Below, one piece after another: positions 4,666 to 64,000 of a DNA stretch of 64,000 nucleotides; positions within the stretch are counted from its first letter, which is position 1, and the number at the start of each line of letters is the position of its first letter. The notes beneath the pieces were generated by a model. That model ran no database searches, was not told where the DNA came from, and saw only the letters and a program-made list of their open reading frames with translations. The position numbers and the translations under genes are program-made. Origin of the DNA: Lophium mytilinum (taxonomy: Eukaryota); contig MU004204.1 in the NCBI GenBank assembly GCA_010093605.1, positions 266,959 to 330,958 on the forward strand, in the 5' to 3' direction.

Positions 4666-6378
4666 CTATGCTGTCGTGGAATATCTGACGCATCGTTAGC
4701 ATCGAGTCTCAATCGCAGAAAGTCGGACTACTCACTGTATGATCACAGACTTGGTCTGTGAGTACTCCTTCAAAACCGCCTTACCATTCTCCCTCCCAAC
4801 ACCGCTGCTCTTGTACCCGCCAAACGGCACAGTTGGATGGAATGGCAACTGGTTGTTCACCGTAACCGTCCCTGCTTCCAACTTGTTCGCAATCCTAATC
4901 GCGCGATCGATATCCTTAGTGAAAACCGCCGCGCCAAGCCCATACTCAGTGTCATTCGCCTTCAGCAACACCTCGTCCTCAGTCTTGAACGTGTCGACGA
5001 CTACCACTGGCCCGAAGATTTCCTTTGACACAATCTCCGCACCCTTAGCCGGCTTGAAGAAGATGGTCGGCTCGACGTATAGCCCCTTTTCTCCCCAGCT
5101 GTTGCCTCCAGTCACCGTCTCCGCCTCCTTCTTGCCTTGCTCCAAAAATCTCAGCACCGTCTTGTGCTGTGCGGGGTGGTATAGCGGGCTGCTCATGGTG
5201 GTCATGTCATGCGGATCCGACCCGAGGGTGCTGGCACTATGCTCGACCATCGCCTTCAACGCACCCAGGTACGCCTCTGCAATATCCTCATGCACATAGA
5301 TGCGCGTGCCTAGGATACAACCCTGGCCATTCAGCGCCATGAAGCTCGCGCCCGACTGCGCGGCATGGCCAAGATCTGCATCTGGGAACACGATCACGGG
5401 ACTCTTGCCGCCAAGCTCGAGGGTAACGCGCTTAAGATTCGAGTTCGTGCCGGCAACCTGTACTTTCTTGCCGGTCGCGACGCTACCCGTGAAGCTGATC
5501 TTGCGGATCTTGAGGTGGGAGGAGAGAGCTGCGCCAGCTTCGCCCGCGCCAACGAGGATGTTAAGGACGCCAGGGGGGATGCCGGCCTCGATGGCGAGCT
5601 GGCCGAGGAGGAGAGAGCTGAAGGGGTTGAATTCGGAGGCTTTGCTGATGATGACGTTGCCGGCGGCGAGGGCGGGCGCGGCTTTCATGGCAAATGTGAT
5701 GATGGGGCTGTTGAAGGCGTTTATGGCAGCGCAGATGCCAAGGGGCTCGTTGCGGACGATCTGGGCGCTGTTAGCTGTGACATCTTCTCACTGGTTCAAT
5801 TCAAGAACTTGAAAGGGCGTGTAAGATGAAGTTACGAACTCGTAGGAATCCCTGGTCGTCCGGCTGGACCTCTCCAACGTGTTTGTCGCAAAAGCCGGCG
5901 AAGTATCTGAAGAGATCACCGGCGCTTTTAGGTTCATGGAAGCCGCCGAAGAATGCTGGTTTGCCGACGAGAACGGATTCTAGGTAACCAAGTTTCTCGG
6001 CATTCTCTTCGATCAGTGTGGCGTATTTCCACAGGAGCTGTCCGCGTGTAGCCTGGGAGTTGTCAGTGAGTCTCACTTCTTGCGTTCGGCATGGCTGCAT
6101 ACTGGTGATAGTCCTATCCATTCTGGGAACGCTTTGGCGGCAGACTCAACTGCGAGCTCAACGTCTTCAGTATTGGCGTAAAAGAGCTCTAATATCGGTG
6201 TGGAGTTAGTGTCTGATCCAAACTGCGTTACCAATGGGAGACAGGTGAATCACGTACCTTCCGCAATCACCGAATCGTCTACAGCTGACCTTAAAGTCAC
6301 CTTCTCCGTCCCCTTTGTTTTTACAAATTCGCCATGGATGAATTGGCCGCTAGGAATAGGATACTTAAAGGTCGACAT
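4666..6378 (-). CDS. Aldehyde dehydrogenase
   Basis: Start MSTFKYPIPSGQFIHGEF. Motifs ISFTGS, TLELGGKSP (catalytic Glu), NGQGC (catalytic Cys), EIFGPV and PFGGYKSSGVGRE. Several introns; last exon QYSTTA*. Confidence 0.93.
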
Positions 6379-7321
6379 GGTGCTTGGCGTTTTGGAGACT
6401 CGAGAAAATGGAAGACAAGAATAGCACGGGAAGGCTCAGGTTATATAGGCGAACTAAGCTCTTGTAGAACAAACATACAGTTCTGGGCGGAATTCGACGG
6501 ATCAATGAGATATTCTCTTTGCACCATTCGGAGACACGAGACGACCCTGGCCCACTGGTTACTCTTCCCAGTCTTCCACAAACAGAGGTCCGAAATGACC
6601 CGGATAGCCCCATCAACCGAGAACATACTCAATTCTGACGGACGGAAGAGCTTTCACTGCCATTCCGTTAGTATATGTAGTTCCATGACCCGTCCGGGAC
6701 GATCCCGAATGCCGGCTGAGGCAAAGCTAGAGCAAAAGATCCCGAGTACCGCGTTGTTTTAGACTCTAGACTACGAAGGCAGATTCGCAGCCATAGATTG
6801 GTGGCCTCGTGTCCGCAATCTGGTTTTTGGTGCGTACAATTGGTTGAGGTGTAGTTTCAGAGCACATATGCATGATGTGCGGGGATAGCTGAGCGCTAGA
6901 GCACACCCCGCATCAAAGGGCGTTTCCACAAGGCTAGGTACCCCGCCCAAACCTAGACTCTACGTAGCCGGATTTACGTTACACCATTTGCATAAAACAG
7001 TGGGACGGTTGGACGGACGCTGCAGCTTCCGGGAGCTTCAATTGTCAGTCATACAACTTCAGTCGAGATAGTGTGCATAAAAGAGCTTGCCAACGGCATG
7101 CGGAAGAAGCGTCATCCAGCTCTTCTTCTCGTGACGGGTAAGTCTATGTGCTCGTTCCATGGATGTATGATCGTGGACGGAAGTGAACGGGAATGCTTAC
7201 ATTTAAGCCATAGAACCACTTTCCACGATCCAGCCAAAACTTTTCTATAAAAGTCGGCATTCTACAAGCTTTTGAGATCCTTTCTTGCTTCTAAAGCCGA
7301 GCGAAACCTGTGTCCGAAATC

Positions 7322-8145
7322 ATGGAGTCTCTAGCAGGAAAAGTATACGCAGTCTCTGGTGGCGCATCTGGCATGGGCCTGGCAACCGCCCGTCTCCTCG
7401 CACAATCGAAAGCCCGCGGCATCTCTATCGGCGACTTCCAAGATGCCAACTTCGAGGCTATCAAGAAAGAGCTTCAGTCTATCAACGCCTCCACGGAGGT
7501 CCATACCTTCAAAGTCGACGTCTCAAAATCTGCCTCCGTAGCCGCTTGGATCGAGAGCCTTATATCGACATTCGGTGCCTTGGACGGATCCGTCAATGCC
7601 GCTGGAATTGCCCAGCCAGTAGGCGTACGCAAGTCGCCAGCTGTCTTGGAGGAGACCGACGAGACCTGGCATCGAACTATGGGAATCAACCTAGACGGCG
7701 TGTTTTTCTCCACCAGAGAGCAGATTCGAGCAATGGTAGCGCTTCCAAAGGGGCCGAGAAGCATTGTCAACATTGCGAGTATTGCGGCTTTGGTTCACGG
7801 CCCAGACACGTATGGCTATTCGACGTCGAAGTCTTCGGTTGTGCATTTCTCCCAAAGTGTGGCTAAAGATGTGCTGCCCCACGGGATCAGAGTTAATGCG
7901 GTATCGCCAGGTGCGTCAGCTTGAGCGGAGATGATTGAATTTTACTGACGAGTATTGTAGGAGCAACTGCGACGCCTATGTTAGCTCAATTTTTTGCTCC
8001 ACAGGAAGAGAACGCACCCATCGATACGCAGGGGTGGCAACTTGTGCAGCCAGAAGACATTGCCCGGGCGGCAGGGTGGTTGTTGAGCGAGGCGTCTTCG
8101 CAAGTTTCTGGGGTCAACGTACCAGTCGGCCCGGGTGCTCCGTGA
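7322..8145 (+). CDS. Short-chain dehydrogenase/reductase
   Basis: SGGASGMG Rossmann motif, NAAGI, NIAS, YSTSK catalytic YxxxK, IRVNAVSPG. One intron at about 7911-7960. Confidence 0.93.
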
Positions 8146-8422
8146 TCTACATGTAGACTGTATAATCTTGTCCCCCTGTGGTTCCGTATAAAGGACGAAA
8201 AGAAGAGTACCTCGATGTCGAGGATTTGTTGTTTACGTATTGGAAAAACCCACCCTGGGACATAGGAATTCTATTGATCAGGCGTCTATGTGAGAATGCC
8301 ACTCGTGACCGTCTGAAGTAAGACTAGATCTAAGATCTCATCTTCATAATCTTGGAGCTGCCGTATACCTGTTTCTCGAATTGGTCGCCTGTGACAAACC
8401 AACAGTGATGAGGTCAATCATC

Positions 8423-9562
8423 TTACTGTCCGTCTGCCTTTGGCTTCGCTAACTTCTGTGCTTCATCCGAAGCGATCATTTGATCGTACTCTGGACGAGG
8501 GATTTCCAATCCATCGACGAGTCGGCCATAGGTAATGCCACCAAGGCGGCTCATGGGGCGCAGGATCTGTTGGTGAGTTGGATGAGCTTGGGCAGATTTG
8601 GAAGAATAAATGTGAAGTTTGCAGGAATACACGTACGCCGGGATCAATCTGATTCCCATCCTCGTTTACCGAGTCTTCTCGCGCCCAGAAGTTGACCCCC
8701 TCGATGATCGCCATCACCCCTGTCTTCTTGCCTGCCGTCGATCGACTCTCGAATTCTTTAGTATCCATTAGCTTCCCCTCGACGCTGAAAACTGCTTCCT
8801 TGACACGCGAAGCGGCGACCTTCTTGCAAGGAGCTGGATGCAGTCCAGAGAGTGCCCACTCGGAAATGCCCTATGATTATGTCAGTCTCCAGGTAACTCC
8901 AACAACATCCCGACTAGGAGAAGCGGCTCACATAGGGCGCATTGACTGAGGTAGAGTTTGCAGCCTCGACGTAGTGCTCGGATATAATATTGATACAGCC
9001 TGGAGCTCTAGCATAAGAAGGTAACCCATAATTACTATTAAGGACATGATGCGTACATTCGCCGGTCTCGGTGAGGTTCCGTAGACTGTCTTTCATCAAG
9101 TTGAAGCCTCCGGCAAATCCGATGATGAAAACCGGAGGATCGTGGTTGACCATGTTGAAGTAGCTGAAGGGCGAGAGATTCGTGCTAGATCCTGTTGATC
9201 CAATCAATCAGTGCACCGACGTCTTATTGTCGGCTTTTCCGTCACTAACCATCCTTTGATATTGTACTAACAAAGCCTATTGGTCTAGGGACAATCGCAG
9301 AGATTAGAAGTTTGTAATTGAAGACCGCAGGGCGACCCTCTGCGTAAGGGTCGATTTCTCGATGTTCCTTCGTGAGGCATTCTCCGCCGTCATTTGCACC
9401 GTCGCCAGGTTTCCAATTGGGATTCTTGGTCTGTGTATATGCGAAGCCTTTGGATGCATCCCATTCGGGACGAGAAGCTTCTACCTTTTTGAAATCCGGG
9501 TGTGGGTTGCGCTTGATGCTCTTCTCGGCGTCCAGCAGATGCTGTTTTGAATCTGCACTCAT
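8423..9562 (-). CDS. Flavin reductase-like FMN-binding split-barrel protein (DIM6/NTAB type)
   Basis: RNPHPDFKKVEASR, YKLLISAIVPRPIGFVST, NLSPFSYF, KDSLRNL and RLGGITYGR across spliced exons. Confidence 0.88.
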
Positions 9563-33992: not shown

Positions 33993-35835
33993 TCACAACA
34001 AGCCGAGTTCCCCCTTCAACCATTTGCCTGATCCGCCTGGATGCTCCTCGAGGATCTGCATCTCTGCCTTCACGTTCAGCAAGAGCATCCTCTGAATCTC
34101 TGCTCTCCACTCCGGCTCCGGGCCGTCTTCTGCAAGGACGTCCCACTCGAGCATCTTCCGAGCTTTGTGACGGTCTCGTGTTGTCAACTTAAGCAGCCCC
34201 CCAGCCTGGCCTACCGCTTTCTCGGACGCCTTAGTTGCCAGAACGGAGTTTGAAGTCAAGTGGCAGCTCTTGACTCCGATCCAGCGTATCTGCGGTAAGT
34301 TCAATGGTCGAGATGCGGCGAAACTAGCAGCATGCGAATTCTCGTGAGCTAGAGAATATGACCCATGCTTGTAAGTGGAGAGGATGGCAAGGCCATCGGG
34401 ATCAAAGTCCATCATAGCGTAGAGAGGGATGTGTGGTGCGACAGTCGTAAGTTCGCGGAGGAACGCCCGAGTTTCCAGGTCTGGATAGCCTTTGGCCTGA
34501 ACCTGGTCAGCTGGGGAGGCCGTGGGGTGACACCACATACAGTCAAGAGTATCCCCTGCGAACTGATATCCACCCAGAGGTTTGAATGGACGAGCGAACG
34601 GAAAGTGGCCTAGCAAATGTTAGTTCATATGAGGAAGCAACTAGGCAAACACTGATAGACCTCTTTCTCTACTACGACAATCCAGCGAACCGTAGACACC
34701 TCGAGAATGTCATCTTCGTTAAGATTCGGGACGAGGGTGCCCTGGGATCGTGTGAGAGGATGTTTGATATACGACTGACGGGGGCGAACCTCTCGGTTGG
34801 TGAGACCATCGATGGCTGTACCTTCTAATCTCCGAATGCTGAAGTTCCCAACCATGAGCCCCTTTGCTGCGGCCGACTGAAAGTGAGGTAAGTCTAGTAT
34901 CATCTAACAGTTGCAGCCACAAGAAACGTACAACGTTGAGCAAATTCCGGGAGATACCAAAAGTACATGCTATATCGTCGACATAGCGATCAACTACAGC
35001 TTGCTTCACGAAAAGATCGGGACTACGATAGTAGATATCTCTAGTGGATGTGAGAATCTCTCTTCGCAGTCACTGACTATTTGGAAGCTCACCTCTTCGT
35101 AATAACAGCGTTTGAGGTTAATGCATCGTGGACGAGCTCGAGAATGCGAACAAGTACAGCTAGCCCGACTGTCAGTAAGGTAGACACGGTTAGTGAGGCG
35201 AGGGAGCGCAACTGAATCTCCAAGCTTCATGGGCGGTGCTTCCTGGGAAGGTGATGCTTCGAGTCTGGAGTCCACCGTCTACCGTGACGATACCATTCGT
35301 TGGATCAATTCTCCGGCCTGTGCTGCCAGATCGAGTTTTTAGGCTAATTGAGAGCTTGTCGTTCTTTTCGAGCAGGGCGTCAACGATGCTCTCGAAAACC
35401 AGCTCTATCGTCTTGATGACCCAGTTCCTATGAAACAGCCGTGTTAGTATAGAAAATGAACCAATGGCAGCGTGGAAATGCATGCCTATCGCGAACACTT
35501 GGTGACATCTCTTCGACTTTGGTTGAAGGTTCTTGAGAATTCGAAATGGCCCTATGGGAAGGATCCGCTATGGTCTCTGTCTTTCGTGCCATGCCACTGA
35601 TATGATCAGTATAGTAGTTAGTGAATAAGTCGTCCTCTGAATGAAACAGAGTCGTCTGTGAAACTCCAGTGGTTCCCAGAAGGTCGTTGAAGTCGTCAGT
35701 ACTCGCGGTTAGTGATTCTTGAGAAGAGCCTTCATTCGATATAGCTTTAAAGAGCATATCGTCGAAGCTCCCATCATCCATCATTGCATTCACCGCTTGT
35801 TCGCCGTGAAAGACACGAGATGATGTCCCGGCCAT
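33993..35835 (-). CDS. SPO11: Meiotic double-strand-break transesterase Spo11/Rec12
   Basis: KRDIYY (catalytic Tyr), VDRYVDDIA, AAAKGL, VVEKEATF, AKGYPDLETR and DFDPDG (Toprim). Seven introns splice in frame. Start may be 35835 or 35784. Confidence 0.95.
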
Positions 35836-35879
35836 GAAGGTACGAAGTAATATATTCTAGGCCGAGCGCACGTGCCACC

Positions 35880-36045: not shown

Positions 36046-38064
36046 ATGTCCGAGGTTCTTCCCCAGAGCCTCTCCCCATCCCGCAAACGTCCTCACGAGG
36101 ATGACAGAGCGCCCGCCGAAGCAGCCCCTCCGATGGCGTCCGCCTCTCCAGCTCATTCAACTACCTCTACGTTGACGTCGCTATCTAGCATGACTACTCC
36201 TGCTACCTCCAACCTGCCCAATGCGCGAGCGGCGTCCCCGGCTCCAAGCAGCAACAACTCGGTGTCAGGCCAGGCCAATGCCCAGCCGGGCATATCTACG
36301 AATGGTGCCAAGCCTCAGAAGAGAAGGAAACTTACACCCAAGGAACAAGAGGAGAAGAAGCTGGAGAGGGAGGCCAAAGATAAGGCGAAGGCTGAAGCCA
36401 AGGCCCAAAAGGATGAAGAAAAGCGGGTGAAAGATGAGGAGCGGCGGAAAAAGAACGAGGAAAAGGAAGAAAAGAAGCGAGCCAAGGAGCTTGAGCAACA
36501 ACAGAGAGAGAACGAGAAGCGAAAGAAAGACGAAGAAAAGCAGAAGAAGGAGAAGGTATGTCGACCCTTTGCCTGCCAGAGTTCTTGGGACAGCTACTAA
36601 AGTCCTACAGTCTCAGCTCCGATTGAACGCCTTCTTCAAGCAGCCTCAAAAAGGCTCCGCGGATAGCCCCAGTAAACCACTACTGTCAGCAGACCCAATG
36701 GACAGGAGGAAGTCGCTGTCCCTTGAGCCCGGAATACCGTCACGATCCCCGTCCCCAAGCAAGCGAGCTCCGAAGTTGACGGATTACGAGCGCTGTTTTC
36801 TTCCTTTCGAACTTCCCTCTCGCTCTATTATAGCACCATATAATCAGTTTATCGGTGGAGAGGACGAAGTAGAAGCAGCGCGCCAGCGACTAGACAATCT
36901 CGCACCACAAGACCACACGTCCATGGAAGTCAGCCAGCCTGAATCCTTCAAGTCTCAATTGGCCAGCCGTGGCCCTCGCGGCTCAAAGACCATTCCGATG
37001 AGGGACATCATCGCGCACATCAATGGGTCCTCTGCACATCCCATTGACCTGACGGACGAAGCTGCCAGGGCCAGCGCGCAACCCTTGGACCTATTGAAGA
37101 AAGTACCCATGAAGTACCTTTTCTTCCCCGAGGATGTGCGACCACCGTACTACGGTACATTCACAAAAGTCCCCACTCCGCAGGAGGCAGCCAGGCTAGC
37201 CCGAAACCCCTTCTACCGTGGGCTGCCCGAGGCTGACTACGACTACGACTCGGAGGCGGAATGGGAGGAGCCAGAGGAAGGAGAAGATCTGGACTCGGAA
37301 GGAGACGATGATTCTGAGGCGGACGACGATGATCTGGAAAGCTTCCTCGACGACGAAGACGCGGCGGAGAATAAAAGAAGGCTTATCAGTGGAGATCTTG
37401 AACCTGTGAGCACTGGTCTTTGCTGGGAGGACGGGAGGGGGGTAGCTAGACGCGCGGATGGCTCCGGAGAGATCTGTCTCGAGTTCAGAGAGCTGAAGAT
37501 GGGGATGCTTCTTGGTATGTAAACATTCTGTTTTCATGATTTTCTAGGCTAACGTTCGCAGAACCACGTCCCGCGTCCATCGATCCTTTTTCAACAGCAT
37601 ACTGGGAAAAGGTCGCTACTACCTCTCCTCTCACCCTACAGTCTAGAGAGAGTGGTGCAGGCTCTTTAAGCGGCTTGATGAATCCTCCTAGGTTGCCGCT
37701 TACCTCGCGACCGAATTCTATGTTGAACGGTCACAACTCACTCCTTGCAAATAAACCGGGCCCGAAGCCAGCTAAAGTGCCTAGCGCGGCACAATTTGCA
37801 AAGCCGAAGCGAATGGTACCTCCTGATCAGTTACAAGCGTTCAAAACCGCGATATCGGGTAGTGACCTGACCAAAATAGCGCTCGTAGAGGCGTTGAAAA
37901 AGCAGTGAGTAGCTACTTTGCTTCAAAGAATGACACACAAATGCTGACCAGACTTAAGATTTCCTAAGCTACCGAAGGACGTGATCAACAACACTCTCAG
38001 CAACGTTGCGGCACGTGTCGGCGCCAAAGAAATCGAGAAACGATGGGTCCTGCTCGCGCCTTGA
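36046..38064 (+). CDS. RLF2: Chromatin assembly factor 1 large subunit (Cac1/Rlf2/p150)
   Basis: K/E/R coiled coil, PIP box QLRLNAFF, EDVRPPYYGT, YDYDSEAEWEE acidic region and a C-terminal winged-helix-like end. Three introns. Confidence 0.92.
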
Positions 38065-47219: not shown

Positions 47220-47975
47220 CTACGTACTTCGAGCATCCGGATCCAGGTGCCTACACCGCCAATACCCACAGTAGCAATACTGACCCCCCTGGAAGTACCA
47301 CGGGCCGTAATCCACCGTAAGCTGCTCTCCAACCTTCACCGCCCTATTGCCCTTCATCATAATCGCAGTTACTCTCGTCCTCCCCACTCGACCCGTGACA
47401 AAACGTGCCTTCGCGTTGCAAGAGTGGTTCACAAACCGTGCGAAGGACCCTTCATGTGTCGCATCGATAGACCCACATGGCTTCGAGGATATCGATGGAC
47501 CCAGTGGCACTTGAACATGATACCCGACTTCGCTCGTATCGTAAAGATGCCCAGGAGGGTTCAAGACGCCAGTGTACTCACCAATCACCGTACGCGGCCC
47601 GATCCTCTTCTTCGCAAATACACCGACGCCCATACCTTCGACCTCTTTCAGCTCAAAGAGCTTCTCCCACTGTGCTTCCTTGGCACGGAAGGCTTCGAGG
47701 CTGCATTTGCAGCTGTTAGGCTTGGGGGTTTCGTCGCCGCACAAGAGACACATGCCTTCTGTAGTCGTTAGCAGGGTATCTAAGGACGGTTTCCAGGTTT
47801 TTGGGCCATTCCAGCCTTTTGGGCGGTTGGTGGGCCACTCGGATGGGTTGAAGGTTACGGAGCCGCATTGCCTTGGGATTGTTTTTGAGCGGATATTTTT
47901 GGCGATGCGGCGTCTGCCGGATATGGAGGTGAAGCGGAAGGGCTTGGATTTTGGGGGAGCTTTGAGTCGCACCAT
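47220..47975 (-). CDS. Small SET-domain protein A
   Basis: GVGVFA, IGEYTG, RFVNHSC, EQLTVDYG and post-SET CYCG..C. Intronless. Confidence 0.9.
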   Translation of the reverse strand: MVRLKAPPKSKPFRFTSISGRRRIAKNIRSKTIPRQCGSVTFNPSEWPTNRPKGWNGPKTWKPSLDTLLTTTEGMCLLCGDETPKPNSCKCSLEAFRAKEAQWEKLFELKEVEGMGVGVFAKKRIGPRTVIGEYTGVLNPPGHLYDTSEVGYHVQVPLGPSISSKPCGSIDATHEGSFARFVNHSCNAKARFVTGRVGRTRVTAIMMKGNRAVKVGEQLTVDYGPWYFQGGQYCYCGYWRCRHLDPDARST

Positions 47976-48384
47976 ATTTTGAATGGCTGATGCTGTCGGT
48001 AACCTGGTGTCCGCTGAGGTCTGTAAGTGCTTTCGTATGTTTCTTATTAGGAATCGAGATCTTCAATGTTGATGGAGAACGGGGTGCTGCGAAGAACGGG
48101 GCACAAAATGGCGGGTAGACAAAAGAACAAAGACTCGGCTGACAATGAGATGCAGCGTGGCTAGCACCTCTGATAATTGGTCTTTGTGACTTTGTTGCGG
48201 ACATAGGCTCTACCCATCAGAGTCTTTGTCCCATTATGTGCAGGTAATCCCTTTCATCGTCAAGCAGATAAGATCGACTGCACGTGGCAGACCTCCGGCA
48301 ACACAGATACTACCATACGCAGGTAAAGTTGAGGAGAACAACTCCCAAGAAGATAAACCAATCGTCGAATAATCAGCCGCAAAA

Positions 48385-49740
48385 ATGTTCAAGCGAAGCT
48401 ACTTTTACTATATAGATCAAGCAGGTAAGAGGAAAACGGCAAAAAACACCTCACCGGAAGGCCTAAGTAAAGTTATTCCTACGCGTTTCAATGGTCTCAA
48501 ATTTTTCAAGAGCCGCCAGTGGGCGGAGTTCAAAAAGCCTGATAACTGGATAGACACATGGCCCCTAACAACGCTCGCAGATGTTGTCACCACTGACGGA
48601 CTTAGGGAACCATTATGCCGAAACTGTGGTAATCATTTTTCAAATATGTGCGATTGCAAAATCAATGATTTTCGGAAGAATTACGAGAAGTGGGACAAAC
48701 ACTATTTTCTGCAACACACGGGCGACGCGAAGGGCCTCGGGCTTTTCTGCGGAAAAAAATTCGGGAAAGATCTTAAGGGAGGAGTTCTTACTGAAGGTGA
48801 CTTTGTAGGTGAGATGACGGGCATTTTGAGACCTCCCGGTTATGACTTCGGTAAGAAAGACGGATACAGCGTTCGCTTCCGGATCGGCAACTGTAGGCGC
48901 CCCAGCGTCTGGGGATACGTGGATCCATATGATACGGGCAGTTACATGAGGTTTGTCAATCACTCCTGTGATTCCAATTGCGAGTTTCAACATAGCAGGG
49001 TTGGGAACACCCGCATTAGTTCTGTTGTCGTAAAAAAGGGCAAAACTCTCAGGGCGGGTGACGAAATCACTACGGATTATGGCCCGGGGTATTTCGAAAA
49101 CATCAAAGAATGTTATTGCGGGACATCGCAATGTCGGAAGCCACCACAGAACGACGATGATGAAGAGGATGATGACGATGAGAAGTATGATGAGGATGAC
49201 GAAGACGAGGATGATAAGGATGACGAAGATGATGATGAGGATGATTGCGATGATGGCGATGATAGGGATGGCGACAGCGGAGAAGGCCCACCTCCAAGTG
49301 ATGATGAAATGGACGTAGATCAAGAGGATGGCGACCTTTCTCCACGGCAACCCAAACCAAGCTCCTACAAGGGAAAGGGTAAAGGCAGAGCTGAGCCTAT
49401 ACAAGAAAGTGAAGATGAAATGAACATAGATGAAGATGAAGAATCGGACAATGAGATTGGGACCAATGGTACAGGTAAGGGATACCGCGGAAAGAAAACG
49501 TACAATATCATAAGCAGTCGGTCGGCTCTGGAAGTTTCTCGTAGTCGGAAAACGAAGATCAGTGCGAGCAGCGCCAAACCAACTTCTTACAAGCAGGTGA
49601 GCTCTCACGCCCGACCAAACCCTGGCGACCTTAAAAGAAAAAGGCCTGCTGTAGAAGAAGAGGCTCGCTCGGACCAGAGCGAGGCCGATGAGGCTCCTCA
49701 TAGGTCTATTAAGAGGTACCGTAGAAGGGGATTCAAATAA
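48385..49740 (+). CDS. SET-domain protein B with acidic tract and basic tail
   Basis: KGLGLF, VGEMTG, RFVNHSC, DEITTDYG and CYCGTSQC, then a long D/E run. Intronless. Confidence 0.9.
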   Translation: MFKRSYFYYIDQAGKRKTAKNTSPEGLSKVIPTRFNGLKFFKSRQWAEFKKPDNWIDTWPLTTLADVVTTDGLREPLCRNCGNHFSNMCDCKINDFRKNYEKWDKHYFLQHTGDAKGLGLFCGKKFGKDLKGGVLTEGDFVGEMTGILRPPGYDFGKKDGYSVRFRIGNCRRPSVWGYVDPYDTGSYMRFVNHSCDSNCEFQHSRVGNTRISSVVVKKGKTLRAGDEITTDYGPGYFENIKECYCGTSQCRKPPQNDDDEEDDDDEKYDEDDEDEDDKDDEDDDEDDCDDGDDRDGDSGEGPPPSDDEMDVDQEDGDLSPRQPKPSSYKGKGKGRAEPIQESEDEMNIDEDEESDNEIGTNGTGKGYRGKKTYNIISSRSALEVSRSRKTKISASSAKPTSYKQVSSHARPNPGDLKRKRPAVEEEARSDQSEADEAPHRSIKRYRRRGFK

Positions 49741-58399: not shown

Positions 58400-61300
58400 T
58401 CCCTATAATACACACATTAATTTATATAAGGACTATTAGAATCCTATCTAGAGAACTTAATTTTTTTACTATATCTTAATACCGCCTAACTTAATAATTA
58501 GTAAGGCTATTAATACTATTATAGAGGCTATATACTAACTTTTTCTAGTATTATAGTACCTTTAAAAGCCTTTAATATCTATATTTCTATATAGTTAATA
58601 TATAGTAAAGTCTACTATATCTTCTTTAATTAGAAGGCCTCTACCTCTACTATTAGTACTCTAGATAAGGCTATTTCTAATTCTCTAGATATATTAATAC
58701 TAGCTTCTAGAAAGGTACTAAAGGCTTTAAAGGCTATAGTAGCGCCTATAAAGGCGCCTATATCTATAAAGGCGCCTATACCTATAAAGGCTTCTATAAA
58801 AGTATAGGCATATATAATAAAGTAGGCCGCCTAATATAAAGAAAAGGCGTACTTAATAGAAGAGAAAAACCTATTATAGAATAAAGTAGAGGCTTAAGTT
58901 ACTAAATATCTATTAGCTACTACTATATATAAGGCTATAGATAAGAAGCCTAAAGCTATAAAAGGCTCTATAAAAGGTAGTAGCGCCCTTTTAAATACTA
59001 TAGTAGCTTCTACTAACTATAGAAAAGGCTCTACTACTAGTTATAAAAGGGGCTCTACTACTACTAAGTTAGTAGCTAAGCGCCTAGTAGCTCTTAAGAA
59101 AAGGCGCCCTAATATTACTATTAATTTATCCTAGGGCTAGAGTATTAGTAGTACTTTATATAACTAGCACCCTAGTTTACTTAAGGCTAGATATATATAT
59201 ATTAAGACTCTAAATAAGTATAAGTATTAAAATATAGAGAATAGAATAGACTCTAATCTATTAAGAAATAGTAATAGTAAAATACCGCCTAGCTAAAAGC
59301 TATAAGATAGGTACTATAAGCGTTACGCTAATAAAATTATAGTAGATATAGAGAAAGTAGATAAGAAAGAAAAAAAGAAAAAGAAGAATAATCTACTAAT
59401 ATTATCTAAGCTAGGTAAGAAGATAAATAAGAAGCTTAAGCGCTTTATAGAATAGTTTATAGTAAAGTATCTTAATAGAACTAGTAGGCGCCTCTCTATA
59501 AACTAGATAAATAAGATTAAGGTAAAGGCGTATATAAAGAAAAGGAGGTAGTTATTTACTAAGATAGACTTAACTATATCTAATATTAAGATAATATTTA
59601 TGCCTATAAAGTAGCTTATTAATAACTTTATTATACTTATATTATTTAAGTTATTTATAAATAGTAAGACTATTAGCTAAACTATATAGCTAAATAGTAT
59701 ATATATTTAGCTTAATAGTAGGGTTATTAAAAAGAAGCTTAAGAAGATAGTAGAGAGAGCTATTTAAAAGGGTAACTATAATACTATTTATAGAGTTATT
59801 AAGTATATAGCTAGCATTAGAATATTTACTAGAAGAGAAGAAATGCGCTATTATAACCTAGAGGACTTCTTAATAATAGAGTTTACCTAAGTATATACGC
59901 TAATAGATATAATATAGAGGAACTATCCGCGCTTAATAATTATAGTTATTTTTAAGTATAAGGTCTTATATAATACCTAGGCGCCGCCAGCTAAGAGAAA
60001 GAGATTTAAGTAGCTTAATAGCTTATTACCTGCGTCTATATTAGGTAAGAGGTACTATACTAGTAAGCTATTAAAATAGTAGTATATCTAACTAGGTTAC
60101 TTTACTAATAGAGAAGATCTTAAGCTTAAGATTATAAAGAACTAGATATATATAGGTAGTAATTACTTAAATAAGAATAATAGTTACTTTATTAATAAGG
60201 GTAAGTAGTACTATATTCTTCTTCTAAAGCACTATAAAATATAAGTAAATACTATACTTAGTAATAATACTATAATTTATACTTCTTTTATAAAGCTACT
60301 CTAAGAGCTAATAGAAAATAGGCTAATTAATAAGTAATACTAGAGGCCCGTAAGAACTATATAGGTATAGTTAGTATAGTAGATAGTATAAAATACCTAG
60401 AATACTATAGCTAGCTTTATAAATATATAGATAAAGATAATATAGATAAAGATAGCTATATTAATATCTAAGATAGACTTTAACTAGCCTCTATAGTAGC
60501 TATAGTAGGCTTTTTTTCTATTCTATTCTTAGCTACTACTATACTAGGGGGCTTCTACGCCGCTAAACCCCTATACTATAGCTAGATATACTTCTTCTCT
60601 ATCTACTTCTACTCTATAGCCTATTTCTACTCTATAGCCCTTTATAGCGCCTCTTTCTTATACGCCTATTATTTAACCTAGAAGCTTAAGCCCTATATTA
60701 GAAAAATCTAAAACTATAAAAGTTAGAGCTATTAGTACTTAGTAGTAAACAGCGTAAACTTTTAGTAAACTATATAAATTATATAATATCTATATAAACT
60801 ACTAGCGCAGGTAATATTACTATATAAACTAGTAGTAGTTTACCTATATACTATATAGCCTAATAATACTTAATTATTATCTATTATTTTAAACTATTAA
60901 TAATTTAGTTCTATAGTATCTTTTACCTAATTAGCCTTAGTAGTACTAAAGCTAATATATATATACCCTATATATAATACTACCTATATTCTACTATAAA
61001 ATAATTCTATTTACTACTCTTTCCTCTCTATAGTAGTGCAAGGCGGAGGTAGAAGTAAGTAGAAATAGTAAGTACTTAGGCTAGAATATCTAATCTTTAT
61101 TCTATAAATAGTTAGTATAGTAAAGTTAGGGCTATAGTAGTTAAAAAGTAGATTTAATAGATATATAGAGAATAGGTAGAAAAGATATAATCTATTTATT
61201 CTATAATTTAGTGCTAGGTCTAGCTTATAAATTATAATTAGAATGCTTAATATATTCTTAGGTAGACTTTTACTATATTACTACTAAGACCTATTATTTA

Positions 61301-64000
61301 AGAGTTAGGCTGTAGTATATAACTATCTATAAATAATAAAAAGTATATAACTATTCTACTACTAATATAAGCTCTAGTAGTAGTTTCTTATATTTATATT
61401 ATAGAATAGCCTCTAGTATTATAGCTATAACGCTACTGCCTCTATAGCTTCTTCTTTCTATTTACTTCTTCTATATTTCTTATTTCCCTCTATATTAGTA
61501 TACTTTACTTCTTCTATCTATATTTTAGGTTACTACTTCTCTATTTATAGTCTCTTCTATTATACTTCTAACCTTAGAAGTTAGAATACTATTATTTTAT
61601 AACCTAGCCTATAGTATACTTATATACTAGAAGATAATAAAAATATATACTCTCTATCTAGTAGGGTAGTTATAGAACCTAAAATATACTTAAAGAAATA
61701 GGCTAGAGTCTCTTTTAAAATATAAGAATATAGAGAGTATACTATAATAATTATAGATAATCTTATATAATTCTAGATAATCTTATATAGTACTATAAGA
61801 AGAGTTAGAGATATTAGAGTAGAGATAGCTTTATTTTCCCTCTTTCTACCGCGTTATTATATAGTAGATAGTTATCTATTACTAGTATATATAAGGGCTA
61901 GGTTATCCCTATAATACTAGATTAAAGTATATCTAGCGCTAGTAATAGAGTATATATTCTATTTACCCGCTTATTTTCTAAGAAAAGTAGGGCTAGAGAA
62001 GTAGTAGTTAGGGTAGAGTTAAAAGCTAGTAGAAAATATAAATATATAGTTATATATAGTAGTTAGAAAGATTAAGAGCTATATATATAAAAGATTATAC
62101 TAGAACTAAGGCGCTATTATATAGAGTAGAGTAGAAGGAATAGAAAAACTTAGTAGAAAAAAAATTCTATAAAGTAGAGTAGAAGAAATAGAGAAACCTA
62201 GTAGATAAAAAAGCTTATAGAGTAAAGTAGAAGAAATAAAGAAGCTTAGTAAATAATATAAGCTAGTAATACTAGAGTATATTACCTTTATCTAATATAG
62301 CTCTATAGAACTATACTAGTTTAACTACTAACCTAGATATTAGTATACTATTAGCTTTCTATTATAGTAGATACTATTAGTAAGCTATACCTATATACTA
62401 TCTCTTATTCTCTATATTCTAGCTTTTTAAATAAGTTTCTACTAGCTTTAGCTTCTACTATAATTTATTAGTATATGTAATTTTAATATCTACTATATTT
62501 TAAATAGTTAGCCTTAAGTTAATCTCTACTATAACTCTTCTACCTTTTTAACTCTTACTACTTTCTACTACTCTATAGTATAGAGAAAGAAATGCAGGGT
62601 AGGCTTTTATATCTATAGAATAGAGAAGAATAGTCCTATTATATATATAGGTAGGCGCTAGAAATTTAAGGCTTAGGTGTATATCTTTTAACTAATAGTT
62701 ACTATATACTTTTCTCTTAAGTATACTATTAAAATCTTATATAAGTATATCTTTATAGTAGTATACTATTATTACTAATAGTTATTCTTAATTAGCCTTA
62801 GGTTTAATCCCTTATATTATAGCTTAACGCGCTAGGTATTATAACTATAGAATATCTCTAAATAGGTATTATAAGACTAGTAGTATTTTTAAGTATATAT
62901 AGTTTAGGGGGTTTATATTAAAAGTAGATAGATAAGTAGTTTTTAAGTTAGAGCTTAGAGTAAGAATAGGCTTTAAGATATAAGGTATATATATATACTA
63001 CGCATCTATTAAAAGTTAACTTAATAGTAGTATAAAAATATAGAAGGTATATAGAGAGTATATATAGATAGACTTATATAGTTCTATTTAAGGCTGCTTT
63101 CTACCTATATATATACTAGAAAATTAGTAATTTCTTAAGAAGGTACTTACTATACTAAGTATATACGCCTTCTATATCTACTTTTAAATATCTCTTAGAT
63201 AATATTAGAGGAGTAGAAAATAGTAGAGTTAGTATTCTTTTCTTTATTTCTTACTATATAAGTATATATAATTTCTAAGGCCTTCTTAATACTAGTCTAA
63301 GCTATAATTAGGCCTATTTTAGCCTTATATAAGGCTGCCTCCACCGCCTTTAAGCTATCTAGGTCTTCTATAGATAATACCTCCTCTATAGTATTTTCTT
63401 TATTCTAGTTAACTTTCTTTATCTAGTTCTTTCTATTATTAAAGTAGTATATATTTAATTTATCTTTATCTTCTATAAGGTTTATAGGCTCTAGTTTATT
63501 AGATAGCGCTTTATATTTATTCTTTAAGGTTACACCTTAAGTCTCTTATTCTAATACTACTATTTCTAAGTTCTTCTCTCTAGCCTTAGCTATTACTAAG
63601 GTCTCTAGTAATAATAGCGCCTTTTATATACTTCTAGTCTTCTAGTATATTAAGATCTATAGCTTATCTATAAAGATATAGGTCTCTAGTAATAATAGCG
63701 CCGCTTATATACTTCTAGTCTTCTAGAATATTAAAATCTATAGCTTAACTATAAGAATATACTTAGTATAAATTTAGACTTCTAGTTAGAGATTATAGTT
63801 ATTTTTTTCCTCTTTTTCCCTATATATAGCTATATAGTAGCTAATAGCCTTACCTAAAGTAGTATAATTTAAGTAGAATAATATTAGGTTTATAAGGCTA
63901 ACTTTAAATATAGAACTATCTTTAGAGTTAATAAAGTAGGTATATATTAGTAAGAGAACTAAATATAGATTAGTAAATATATAATCTTCTTATATATAGT
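58400..64000. mobile_element. RIP-mutated AT-rich repeat/transposon relic block, family not identifiable
   Basis: Abrupt GC drop, extreme TpA excess, near absence of CpA/TpG, surviving GCGC/GGCGCC islands and no ORFs in the track. Confidence 0.85.

Follow-up and report, generated by a model that had tools for sequence, protein, structure and literature searches.

A divergent pair of SET genes in Lophium mytilinum points to a large family of compact SET proteins with HMG-box core sites upstream

In this work, we show that two neighbouring genes of Lophium mytilinum, here called A and B, belong to a large family of compact SET-domain proteins, and that the upstream regions of this family are enriched for the core word of HMG-box factors. 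The two genes lie head-to-head, with 409 bp from ATG to ATG, in a stretch of 64,000 nucleotides of contig MU004204.1 (assembly GCA_010093605.1, positions 266,959 to 330,958), hereafter the window, in which all plain coordinates are given. We read them as the outcome of an old inverted duplication, with an HMG-controlled bidirectional promoter between them and with products that would act as lysine methyltransferases in the nucleus and whose induction probably falls in the sexual cycle. As a whole, this reading has in our judgment a probability of about one half. The main features are the following.

47220..47975, minus strand: gene A, a SET protein of 251 amino acids (N-terminal module, pre-SET zinc finger, SET, post-SET)
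47976..48384, no strand: shared A/B spacer of 409 bp, putative bidirectional promoter
48127..48229, both orientations: five HMG-box core sites (ACAAAG four times, ACAATG once), 152-253 bp from both start codons
48385..49740, plus strand: gene B, a SET protein of 451 amino acids with an acidic and basic tail

SET was the sole Pfam family above cut-off in A (E 2e-13) and in B (E 2e-10), and BLASTP aligned the two proteins at 32% identity over 250 residues (E 1e-40), from a basic N-terminal motif to the post-SET cysteines, with NHSC, DYG and the post-SET CxC..C found in both. Coordinates, Pfam and BLASTP thus agree with the earlier note on this DNA, which had described two SET genes 409 bp apart sharing an N-terminal motif string and these NHSC, DYG and post-SET residues. 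The same note called the genes intronless, and indeed both are single open frames, with none of the 15 listed RNA splice joints inside them (20 joints in total, under thin cover). Contigs of one spliced RNA run, of growth stage not given and with GT-AG joints in the neighbouring genes, cover parts of both open reading frames (ORFs); the depths of 0.65-3.4 over A and B and of 12-110 over most neighbours are figures unfit for ranking expression or stage. The deposited model of B (P0014) begins at Met88 and omits the N-terminal module, but the longer frame is favoured by the alignment with A and by the similar start contexts of the two genes, TCAGCC..CAAAA(T)ATG.

Six genes of the L. mytilinum genome (43.4 Mb, 49 contigs) belong to the family, all as single frames: A and B on contig C24, a head-to-tail pair on C5 and single genes on C7 and C13. 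SET matches in this genome amounted to 34, including Set1, Set2, Ash1, DIM-5, E(z), Set9 and Set3 look-alikes, labels that we assigned by reading motifs; many of the 34 (loci L016-L038) are SMYD/TPR-like split-SET genes outside the family. Word-index protein searches were insensitive, returning five matches for A, B alone for B and seven for a profile, and it was an HMMER scan of representative proteins that revealed the family, with 1665 proteins at E<=0.001 and 225 at E<=1e-10. Most of the best 150, which we examined, carry the family motifs, and the family comprises well over 100 clusters at 50% identity. The unusual N-terminal region stressed by the earlier note is present in both A and B, but it is a hallmark of this large family and not peculiar to the pair. 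We looked up 30 proteins, and every fungal one with a name comes from Dothideomycetes (Mytilinidion, Lepidopterella, Glonium, Cenococcum, Delitschia, Cucurbitaria, Paraconiothyrium, Didymosphaeria and Trypethelium); the Atlas clusters of the family are from Ascomycota, and its range is likely wider than Dothideomycetes. The orthologue of A in Mytilinidion resinicola is 77% identical, and an orthologue of B, P0019, is partial and 51% identical.

HMG-box core sites upstream of the family genes

The five core sites of the A/B spacer stand against 0.63 expected (p 0.002), the top count among 570 sliding windows of 400 bp over positions 1-57,300. Because the word was first noticed after the fact, at A/B and at the C5 pair, we tested 18 other family upstream regions, namely those of C7, C13 and 16 metagenomic loci, with a near-duplicate and a pseudogene left out. 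These regions hold 50 ACAAAG/ACAATG sites versus 10.1 expected, at 0-6 per region, and in a ranking of 6-mers ACAAAG came first (29 vs 5.8 expected, p 7e-12) and ACAATG second (21 vs 4.5, p 1e-8). Permuted words gave lower counts. Upstream regions of 55 neighbouring genes hold 0-2 sites each (Mann-Whitney p 2e-7), 17 downstream regions 10 sites, 14 far-upstream regions 12 sites, and 11 other SET genes 0-1 each. Orientations are balanced, 45 of 57 sites fall at -100 to -300, and 20 sites versus 5.05 expected are counted when each of the nine orthologue groups is given its minimum value. A Kozak artefact as the source of ACAATG was ruled out, since both orientations are equal and ACAAAG is commoner. 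Within 238 kb of this genome, eight clusters have at least four sites; four of them are found at genes of the family, and another two at an HMG-box gene that resembles PaHMG8. The pseudogene L060, a single case, has no intact core site upstream.

The published HMG core reads A(A/T)CAA(A/T)G, and PaHMG5, the Ste11 orthologue that drives the sexual cycle of Podospora, has the consensus (A/G)ACAAAGAA (PMC3730723). ATTGTT is the core of Fusarium MAT1-2-1 (PMC4559316). The recurrence of a word of the mating-type class of regulators in the family promoters suggests that protein or chromatin marks may be written in the sexual cycle.

Several points weigh against this step of our reading. The full 9-mer (A/G)ACAAAGAA is absent from the A/B spacer and occurs in 3 of 23 family upstream regions, two of the 18 tested regions are free of sites, and a long-branch subclade has 0-2. 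For the metagenomic genes, the start codon was set at the first ATG of each frame. DNA methylase, Rad51-family and STE3 receptor loci hold at most two sites per 400 bp, and the Spo11 gene in the window has no cluster; a general meiotic regulon was ruled out on these loci. Factors unrelated to mating, such as Rox1-like proteins, also bind HMG cores. The same enzymes could thus be controlled by HMG-type sites serving a non-sexual programme (Rox1/PaHMG8-like, hypoxia or vegetative differentiation), or by another factor with a similar core. The rarity of the strict Ste11/PaHMG5 word, core meiotic and RIP-related (repeat-induced point mutation) loci without a site cluster, and RNA contigs of unstated growth stage over parts of A and B all fit such control. 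On the other side, the MATA_HMG factors that were tested with this core in Podospora have roles in the sexual cycle (PMC3730723), and ATTGTT, quoted above, is the MAT1-2-1 core. We regard non-sexual control as unlikely, although it is the best placed of the alternatives.

Some further observations concern the word itself. A perfect palindrome of two ACAATG half-sites, at ~110-145 bp upstream of L050, L070 and L073, is conserved in one subclade despite mostly diverged flanks, which suggests a dimeric HMG site. An HMG-box gene resembling Rox1/PaHMG8 (L127:574-1494) is accompanied by eleven core sites, in its 5' part or farther upstream, among them two full (A/G)ACAAAGAA words. Five core sites also stand at the start of an ORF of 388 amino acids without a Pfam family (sites at L042:9190-9564; ORF at 8318-9481, minus strand), ~2 kb from the C13 family gene, which makes this ORF a candidate for a co-regulated gene. 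An intron-split HMG-box gene (L137:1250-1950, minus strand) presumably resembles MAT1-2-1. A search of the genome for an alpha-box (MAT1-1-1) gene gave no match, and neither did the positive control of that search.

Protein anatomy and relation to known SET classes

Residue counts in this section come from 169 rows, that is, the best 150 HMMER hits minus two duplicates of the L. mytilinum genes and three proteins outside the family (P0013, P0082 and P0156), plus the L. mytilinum and metagenomic members. The parts of the two proteins are as follows.

47667..47948, minus strand: N-terminal module of A, residues 10-103, from conservation and model (beta hairpin, W/P-rich loop with W47, P52, W55 and W61, short helix, zinc finger, helix to W103)
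47703..47750, minus strand: predicted single-zinc pre-SET finger of A, C76-x2-C79...C89-x-C91
47304..47630, minus strand: SET core of A, with GxG (116/118), channel Tyr134, I-SET Tyr152, RFxNHSC (180-186), RVG (196-198), Val221 at the Phe/Tyr switch and catalytic Tyr223
47253..47276, minus strand: post-SET CxCG...C of A, which with C186 would form the zinc site closing the active site (from sequence conservation)
48616..48657, plus strand: putative pre-SET zinc finger of B, C78-x2-C81...C89-x-C91
48814..48816, plus strand: Met144 of B instead of the channel Tyr (GEMTG vs GEYTG in A)
49153..49455, plus strand: D/E-rich tract of B, ~residues 257-357
49465..49737, plus strand: basic tail of B, with LKRKRP and KRYRRR resembling a nuclear localization signal (NLS)

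The AlphaFold model of A has a mean confidence (pLDDT) of 93.4 across the whole chain, and its structural matches tie: NSD2 (Z 15.6), SUVH6 (15.2), Set2 (15.1), G9a (15.1) and ATXR5 (14.6). Such near-tied scores mean that A has the classical fold of histone lysine methyltransferases (KMTs) without being any of these enzymes in particular. Folded alone (predicted TM-score 0.44), the N-terminal module has no PDB match at Z>=2, which does not imply that its fold is new; within the model of the full chain, its strands line up with the N-SET parts of known KMTs. The ligands of the finger are well conserved (C76 in 152/152 rows, C79 in 145/151, C89 in 139/157, C or H at 91 in 143/157), and these four would form a one-zinc finger in place of an AWS domain or a nine-cysteine pre-SET. 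Within the SET core, G116 and G118 are each kept in 159/169 rows, R180 in 168/169, H184 in 165/169, C186 in 166/168 and Y223 in 163/165; the three post-SET cysteines are kept in 162/162, 161/162 and 156/157.

Two positions of the active site depart from familiar enzymes. At the Phe/Tyr switch, 161 of 166 rows have one of the residues V, I, L, A, T and C, and 3 have Phe; in the canonical enzymes of this genome the position is Phe in Set2, DIM-5 and E(z), Tyr in Ash1 and Val in Set9. The channel tyrosine (A Tyr134, in GEYTG) is kept in 133 of the 169 rows, and is replaced by Leu in C7 and by Met in B and P0019. The long D/E tract and basic NLS-like tail that the earlier note attributed to B are there as described, with 18 D/E in residues 271-290 and basic clusters near the end; a window of 20 residues with at least 12 D/E occurs in 9 of the 169 rows. 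One family subclade (P0044, P0046, P0052, P0054, P0061, P0065 and P0066) has a common, probably helical N-terminal region before the W/P module, without a Pfam match. Outside the family, P0013, a metagenomic protein of 802 amino acids, has two SET domains in tandem.

Neither the tree nor the fold search places A and B in a canonical KMT clade, in agreement with their first description as non-canonical paralogues, and they do lack the additional domains of Set1, Set2, Ash1, DIM-5 and EZH. In an IQ-TREE analysis of 51 rows, 40 family rows are split from six canonical-type and five bacterial-type rows by a branch with support 81/94, and a FastTree of 187 rows agrees. The family does not group with Set2 in this tree, which has few canonical rows and from which the Ash1 fragment was left out, whereas the DIM-5 row, partial and on a long branch, forms an unresolved fork with the family and the bacterial-type rows. 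The Set9 row is not part of the 51.

The top profile matches are to the SET2/NSD/ASH1 class of H3K36 methyltransferases, with which A and B share the SET core, the NHSC and post-SET CxC..C zinc site and N-terminal strands packed on the SET core. In contrast to that class, they have four pre-SET ligands, 25-30% identity, a DYGxxYF end instead of F/YxYN and Val or Thr at the switch, without Pfam AWS (no match at E<=1), SRI or WW; look-alikes to AWS/pre-SET among Atlas features, with scores of 0.78-0.81, are a lead only. The genome has its own Set2 and Ash1. With the H3K9 enzymes of the SUV39/G9a/DIM-5 class, A and B share the N-SET to post-SET topology, and in G9a, as in A and B, DYG is followed by aromatic residues. 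Unlike that class, they lack the switch Phe and the three-zinc pre-SET, whose nine cysteines, defined in PMC2474616, were not found in either protein; the DIM-5 of this genome is a separate gene, L012. Set9/SUV4-20 (KMT5) is similar in the switch Val and the YG..YF end, as seen in the Set9 of this genome (L028), but differs in NHDC instead of NHSC and in its N-terminal region, and SUV420H1 reached Z 9.9. The SET1/MLL hallmarks (N-SET, SET_assoc, RRM and large size) are absent from A and B, and so is the CXC domain of E(z)/KMT6; separate Set1 (L011) and E(z)-like (L030) genes are present.

Small bacterial SET proteins, which we label chlamydia-like, are the nearest non-fungal matches and have EYTG, GNFTRFINHS and DYG..YW, but they differ from A and B in a switch Tyr, in the lack of pre- and post-SET cysteines and in their separate tree branch; the tree does not show a bacterial origin of the family. 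Genes of this type occur in tandem pairs or triples on metagenome contigs L081, L088, L098, L100, L105, L113 and L122. Similar by description, the only basis on which we compared them, are the cluster-1-type SET-only proteins of uncharacterized function in groups 7, 9 and 10 as listed in PMC9692433 (Ding et al. 2022), and those in Aspergillus groups (PMC9676040). Group 7 is specific to Pezizomycotina (PMC9692433), and one of the three may be our family. The parts of these articles available to us describe no promoter motif or sexual role.

Methylation of non-histone or non-lysine substrates, such as mating-type factors or ribosomal or spore proteins, would agree with the lack of reader or chromatin domains in A and B, with a small switch residue unlike that of Set2, DIM-5 and EZH (Phe) or Ash1 (Tyr), and with a report that numerous SET groups of fungi do not act as histone enzymes (PMC9692433). 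We consider such substrates improbable: every one of the best matches, by structure or by profile, is to a histone KMT that has pre-SET/AWS and post-SET zinc, and the NLS-like segments and acidic tracts would fit work on nuclear chromatin.

Age and history of the pair

In the IQ-TREE analysis, A, B, C7 and three outside rows form one group of six (support 95/89), the two C5 genes group together with one further row (99/97), and two Delitschia proteins, encoded on one contig and consecutive in accession number, form a group elsewhere in the tree with one further row (100/97). Adjacent family pairs thus number three, in three subclades. Identity between A and B is 0.53, 0.58 and 0.27 at codon positions 1, 2 and 3, with 11 of 33 four-fold sites identical and no blastn match longer than 28 nt. 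The composite RIP index is -0.36 for A, -0.54 for B and -0.59 for the spacer, values without a RIP signature. These figures bear out the earlier suggestion that the copies are old or diverged enough to have escaped RIP, which would spare them as duplicates too diverged to be targeted. Against its Mytilinidion orthologue, A is under purifying selection, with 46 of 50 residues identical at family-conserved columns versus 137 of 184 elsewhere (p 0.007).

The earlier note had proposed that A and B form a co-transcribed two-component module, either a heterodimer or an enzyme with a histone-binding partner, and part of this proposal stands: five HMG-box core sites centred in a shared 409-bp spacer make co-regulation plausible. 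The acidic tail gained by B, its loss of the channel Tyr, and the three adjacent pairs would suit an obligate module too. A dedicated module is nevertheless slightly more improbable, in our view, than non-histone substrates. C7, a close third paralogue, and C13 stand alone in the genome, the pairs fall in three subclades with different orientations here (head-to-head and head-to-tail), and A is confidently modelled as a monomer. Nor was the pairing found conserved elsewhere when we searched for it, as that note had advised: roughly half of the 80 metagenomic loci that we fetched held SET genes of the bacterial type or of other kinds, and of the 13 distinct family loci flanked by 2 kb or more on either side (none of them an orthologue of A or B) not one has a second member nearby. 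No orthologue of B was found among Mytilinidion proteins of 248-790 amino acids, a limited search among often truncated gene models that does not imply absence. Solitary C7 and C13, the 13 unpaired loci and the separate subclades indicate recurrent independent local duplication and not a fixed module. Gene arrangement lends no support to a heterodimer, and since A and B both keep the S-adenosylmethionine (SAM) and catalytic motifs, an inert histone-binding partner is not required.

Birth-and-death duplication of minor consequence, with A functional and B catalytically dead or drifting, is very improbable. In its favour are the lost channel Tyr, the damaged or partial P0019, a family pseudogene and the longer branch of B (0.54 vs 0.10 for A). 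Yet B retains a frame of 451 codons with all zinc ligands, NHSC and DYG despite synonymous sites saturated with respect to A, and the Met at the channel position recurs in P0019. Our own reading is weakened here by three points: P0019, besides being partial, has NFSC for NHSC, and B may for these reasons be decaying in some lineages; the correspondence of Tyr134 to EZH2 Tyr641 is presumed from alignment and numbering; and family monophyly has a bootstrap of 81 only, under thin canonical sampling. The pseudogene (L060:5343-6100) has several stops and a deletion and lies near an AT-rich stretch; a premature stop of the RNA-editing type was rejected for it, as this is plain decay.

Cargo of a transposon or Starship-like element tied to a nearby RIP block, an idea that intronless genes 9 kb from such a block might raise, was ruled out and has a negligible probability, because no transposase or recombinase family was found among 101 neighbouring ORFs, the flanks are ordinary spliced genes, other copies lie in ~50% GC DNA, and the neighbours of subclades, namely ribosomal L5, HVA22, AMP-binding and PrpD genes, are stable from one fungus to another. 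From these stable neighbours and the lack of transposases, the family appears to consist of settled chromosomal genes with births and deaths.

58500..64000, no strand: AT-rich, RIP-mutated block, given as context and without a shown link to the pair

The distance of about 9 kb stated earlier for this block is confirmed by a GC of 24-27% and a composite RIP index of 1.6-1.8 from ~58.5 kb on; in the one RNA run, contig cover is absent beyond 58752. Closer to the pair, a spliced aldo-keto reductase transcript contig (45454-47122, plus strand) ends 98 bp short of the A stop codon, the two genes being convergent. The Spo11 gene (Toprim domain; 33996-35856, minus strand) adjoins that of chromatin assembly factor 1 subunit A (36431-37522, plus strand), ~11-13 kb from the SET pair. 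On C5, the neighbour of the tandem SET pair is a NACHT-WD40 (NLR-like) gene, from which a short TA-rich stretch separates it (L039:564-4547 and 5299-7871).

A proposed role in the sexual cycle

In the reading we prefer, A and B would derive from an old local inverted duplication in the A, B and C7 subclade of a family of compact ascomycete SET enzymes that is large and diverges fast. Their spacer would be a bidirectional promoter whose central ACAA(A/T)G sites are bound by an HMG-box factor, perhaps of the MAT1-2-1 or Ste11/PaHMG5 type, and the two genes would be induced jointly, mainly in mating or sexual development. Each protein is predicted to fold alone, to bind zinc at the reduced pre-SET finger and at the post-SET site, to bind SAM, to enter the nucleus and there to methylate a lysine of a nuclear protein, most likely a histone or another chromatin protein. 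The small switch residue would widen the lysine channel and favour multiple methylation, following the Phe/Tyr switch logic (PMC3178901).

As judged from the Met of B and the channel tyrosine of A, the two proteins may act at different methylation steps. More speculatively, B might prefer an already methylated lysine, and A and B might work in relay without binding each other, while the acidic tail of B would hold basic histone tails. Such a division of labour would need co-expression and not a complex. An analogy is offered by EZH2, in which loss of Tyr641 leads to a preference for dimethylated substrate, and the wild-type and mutant enzymes cooperate in increasing trimethylation (PMC3914023). 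As in A and B, one copy has the channel tyrosine and one does not, but A and B lack the CXC domain and the PRC2 context, and Met is not among the described EZH2 substitutions. The fullest version of our proposal, in which mating-type HMG factors directly switch on a fast-evolving SET family, duplicated many times over, that lays a stage-specific histone mark in the ascomycete sexual cycle, with A and B as a two-step relay (the Tyr copy priming, the Met copy completing), we hold only tentatively and rate as doubtful.

Histone methylation in fungi is ascribed to some six conserved SET enzymes. Further SET groups appear in surveys with no function assigned (PMC9692433; PMC9676040), uncharacterized groups are noted in PMC2474616, and a Podospora preprint reports that 7 of 32 SET genes change during sexual development, with no activity known (10.1101/2024.12.09.627484). 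In the literature we searched, which left out most subscription journals, we found no description of the family or of its promoter motif, and the available parts of PMC12884345, PMC8105982, PMC6652019 and PMC7344243 hold nothing on it.

The pair itself matters less than the uncharacterized SET family that it exposes. With a zinc module of its own, a changed active site and an HMG-box signature shared by its promoters, this family would offer a testable route from mating-type factors to the rewriting of chromatin. If the fullest version of our proposal is true, the stage-specific mark could serve meiotic chromatin, the identity of nuclei in a dikaryon or, before meiosis, a genome defence such as RIP.

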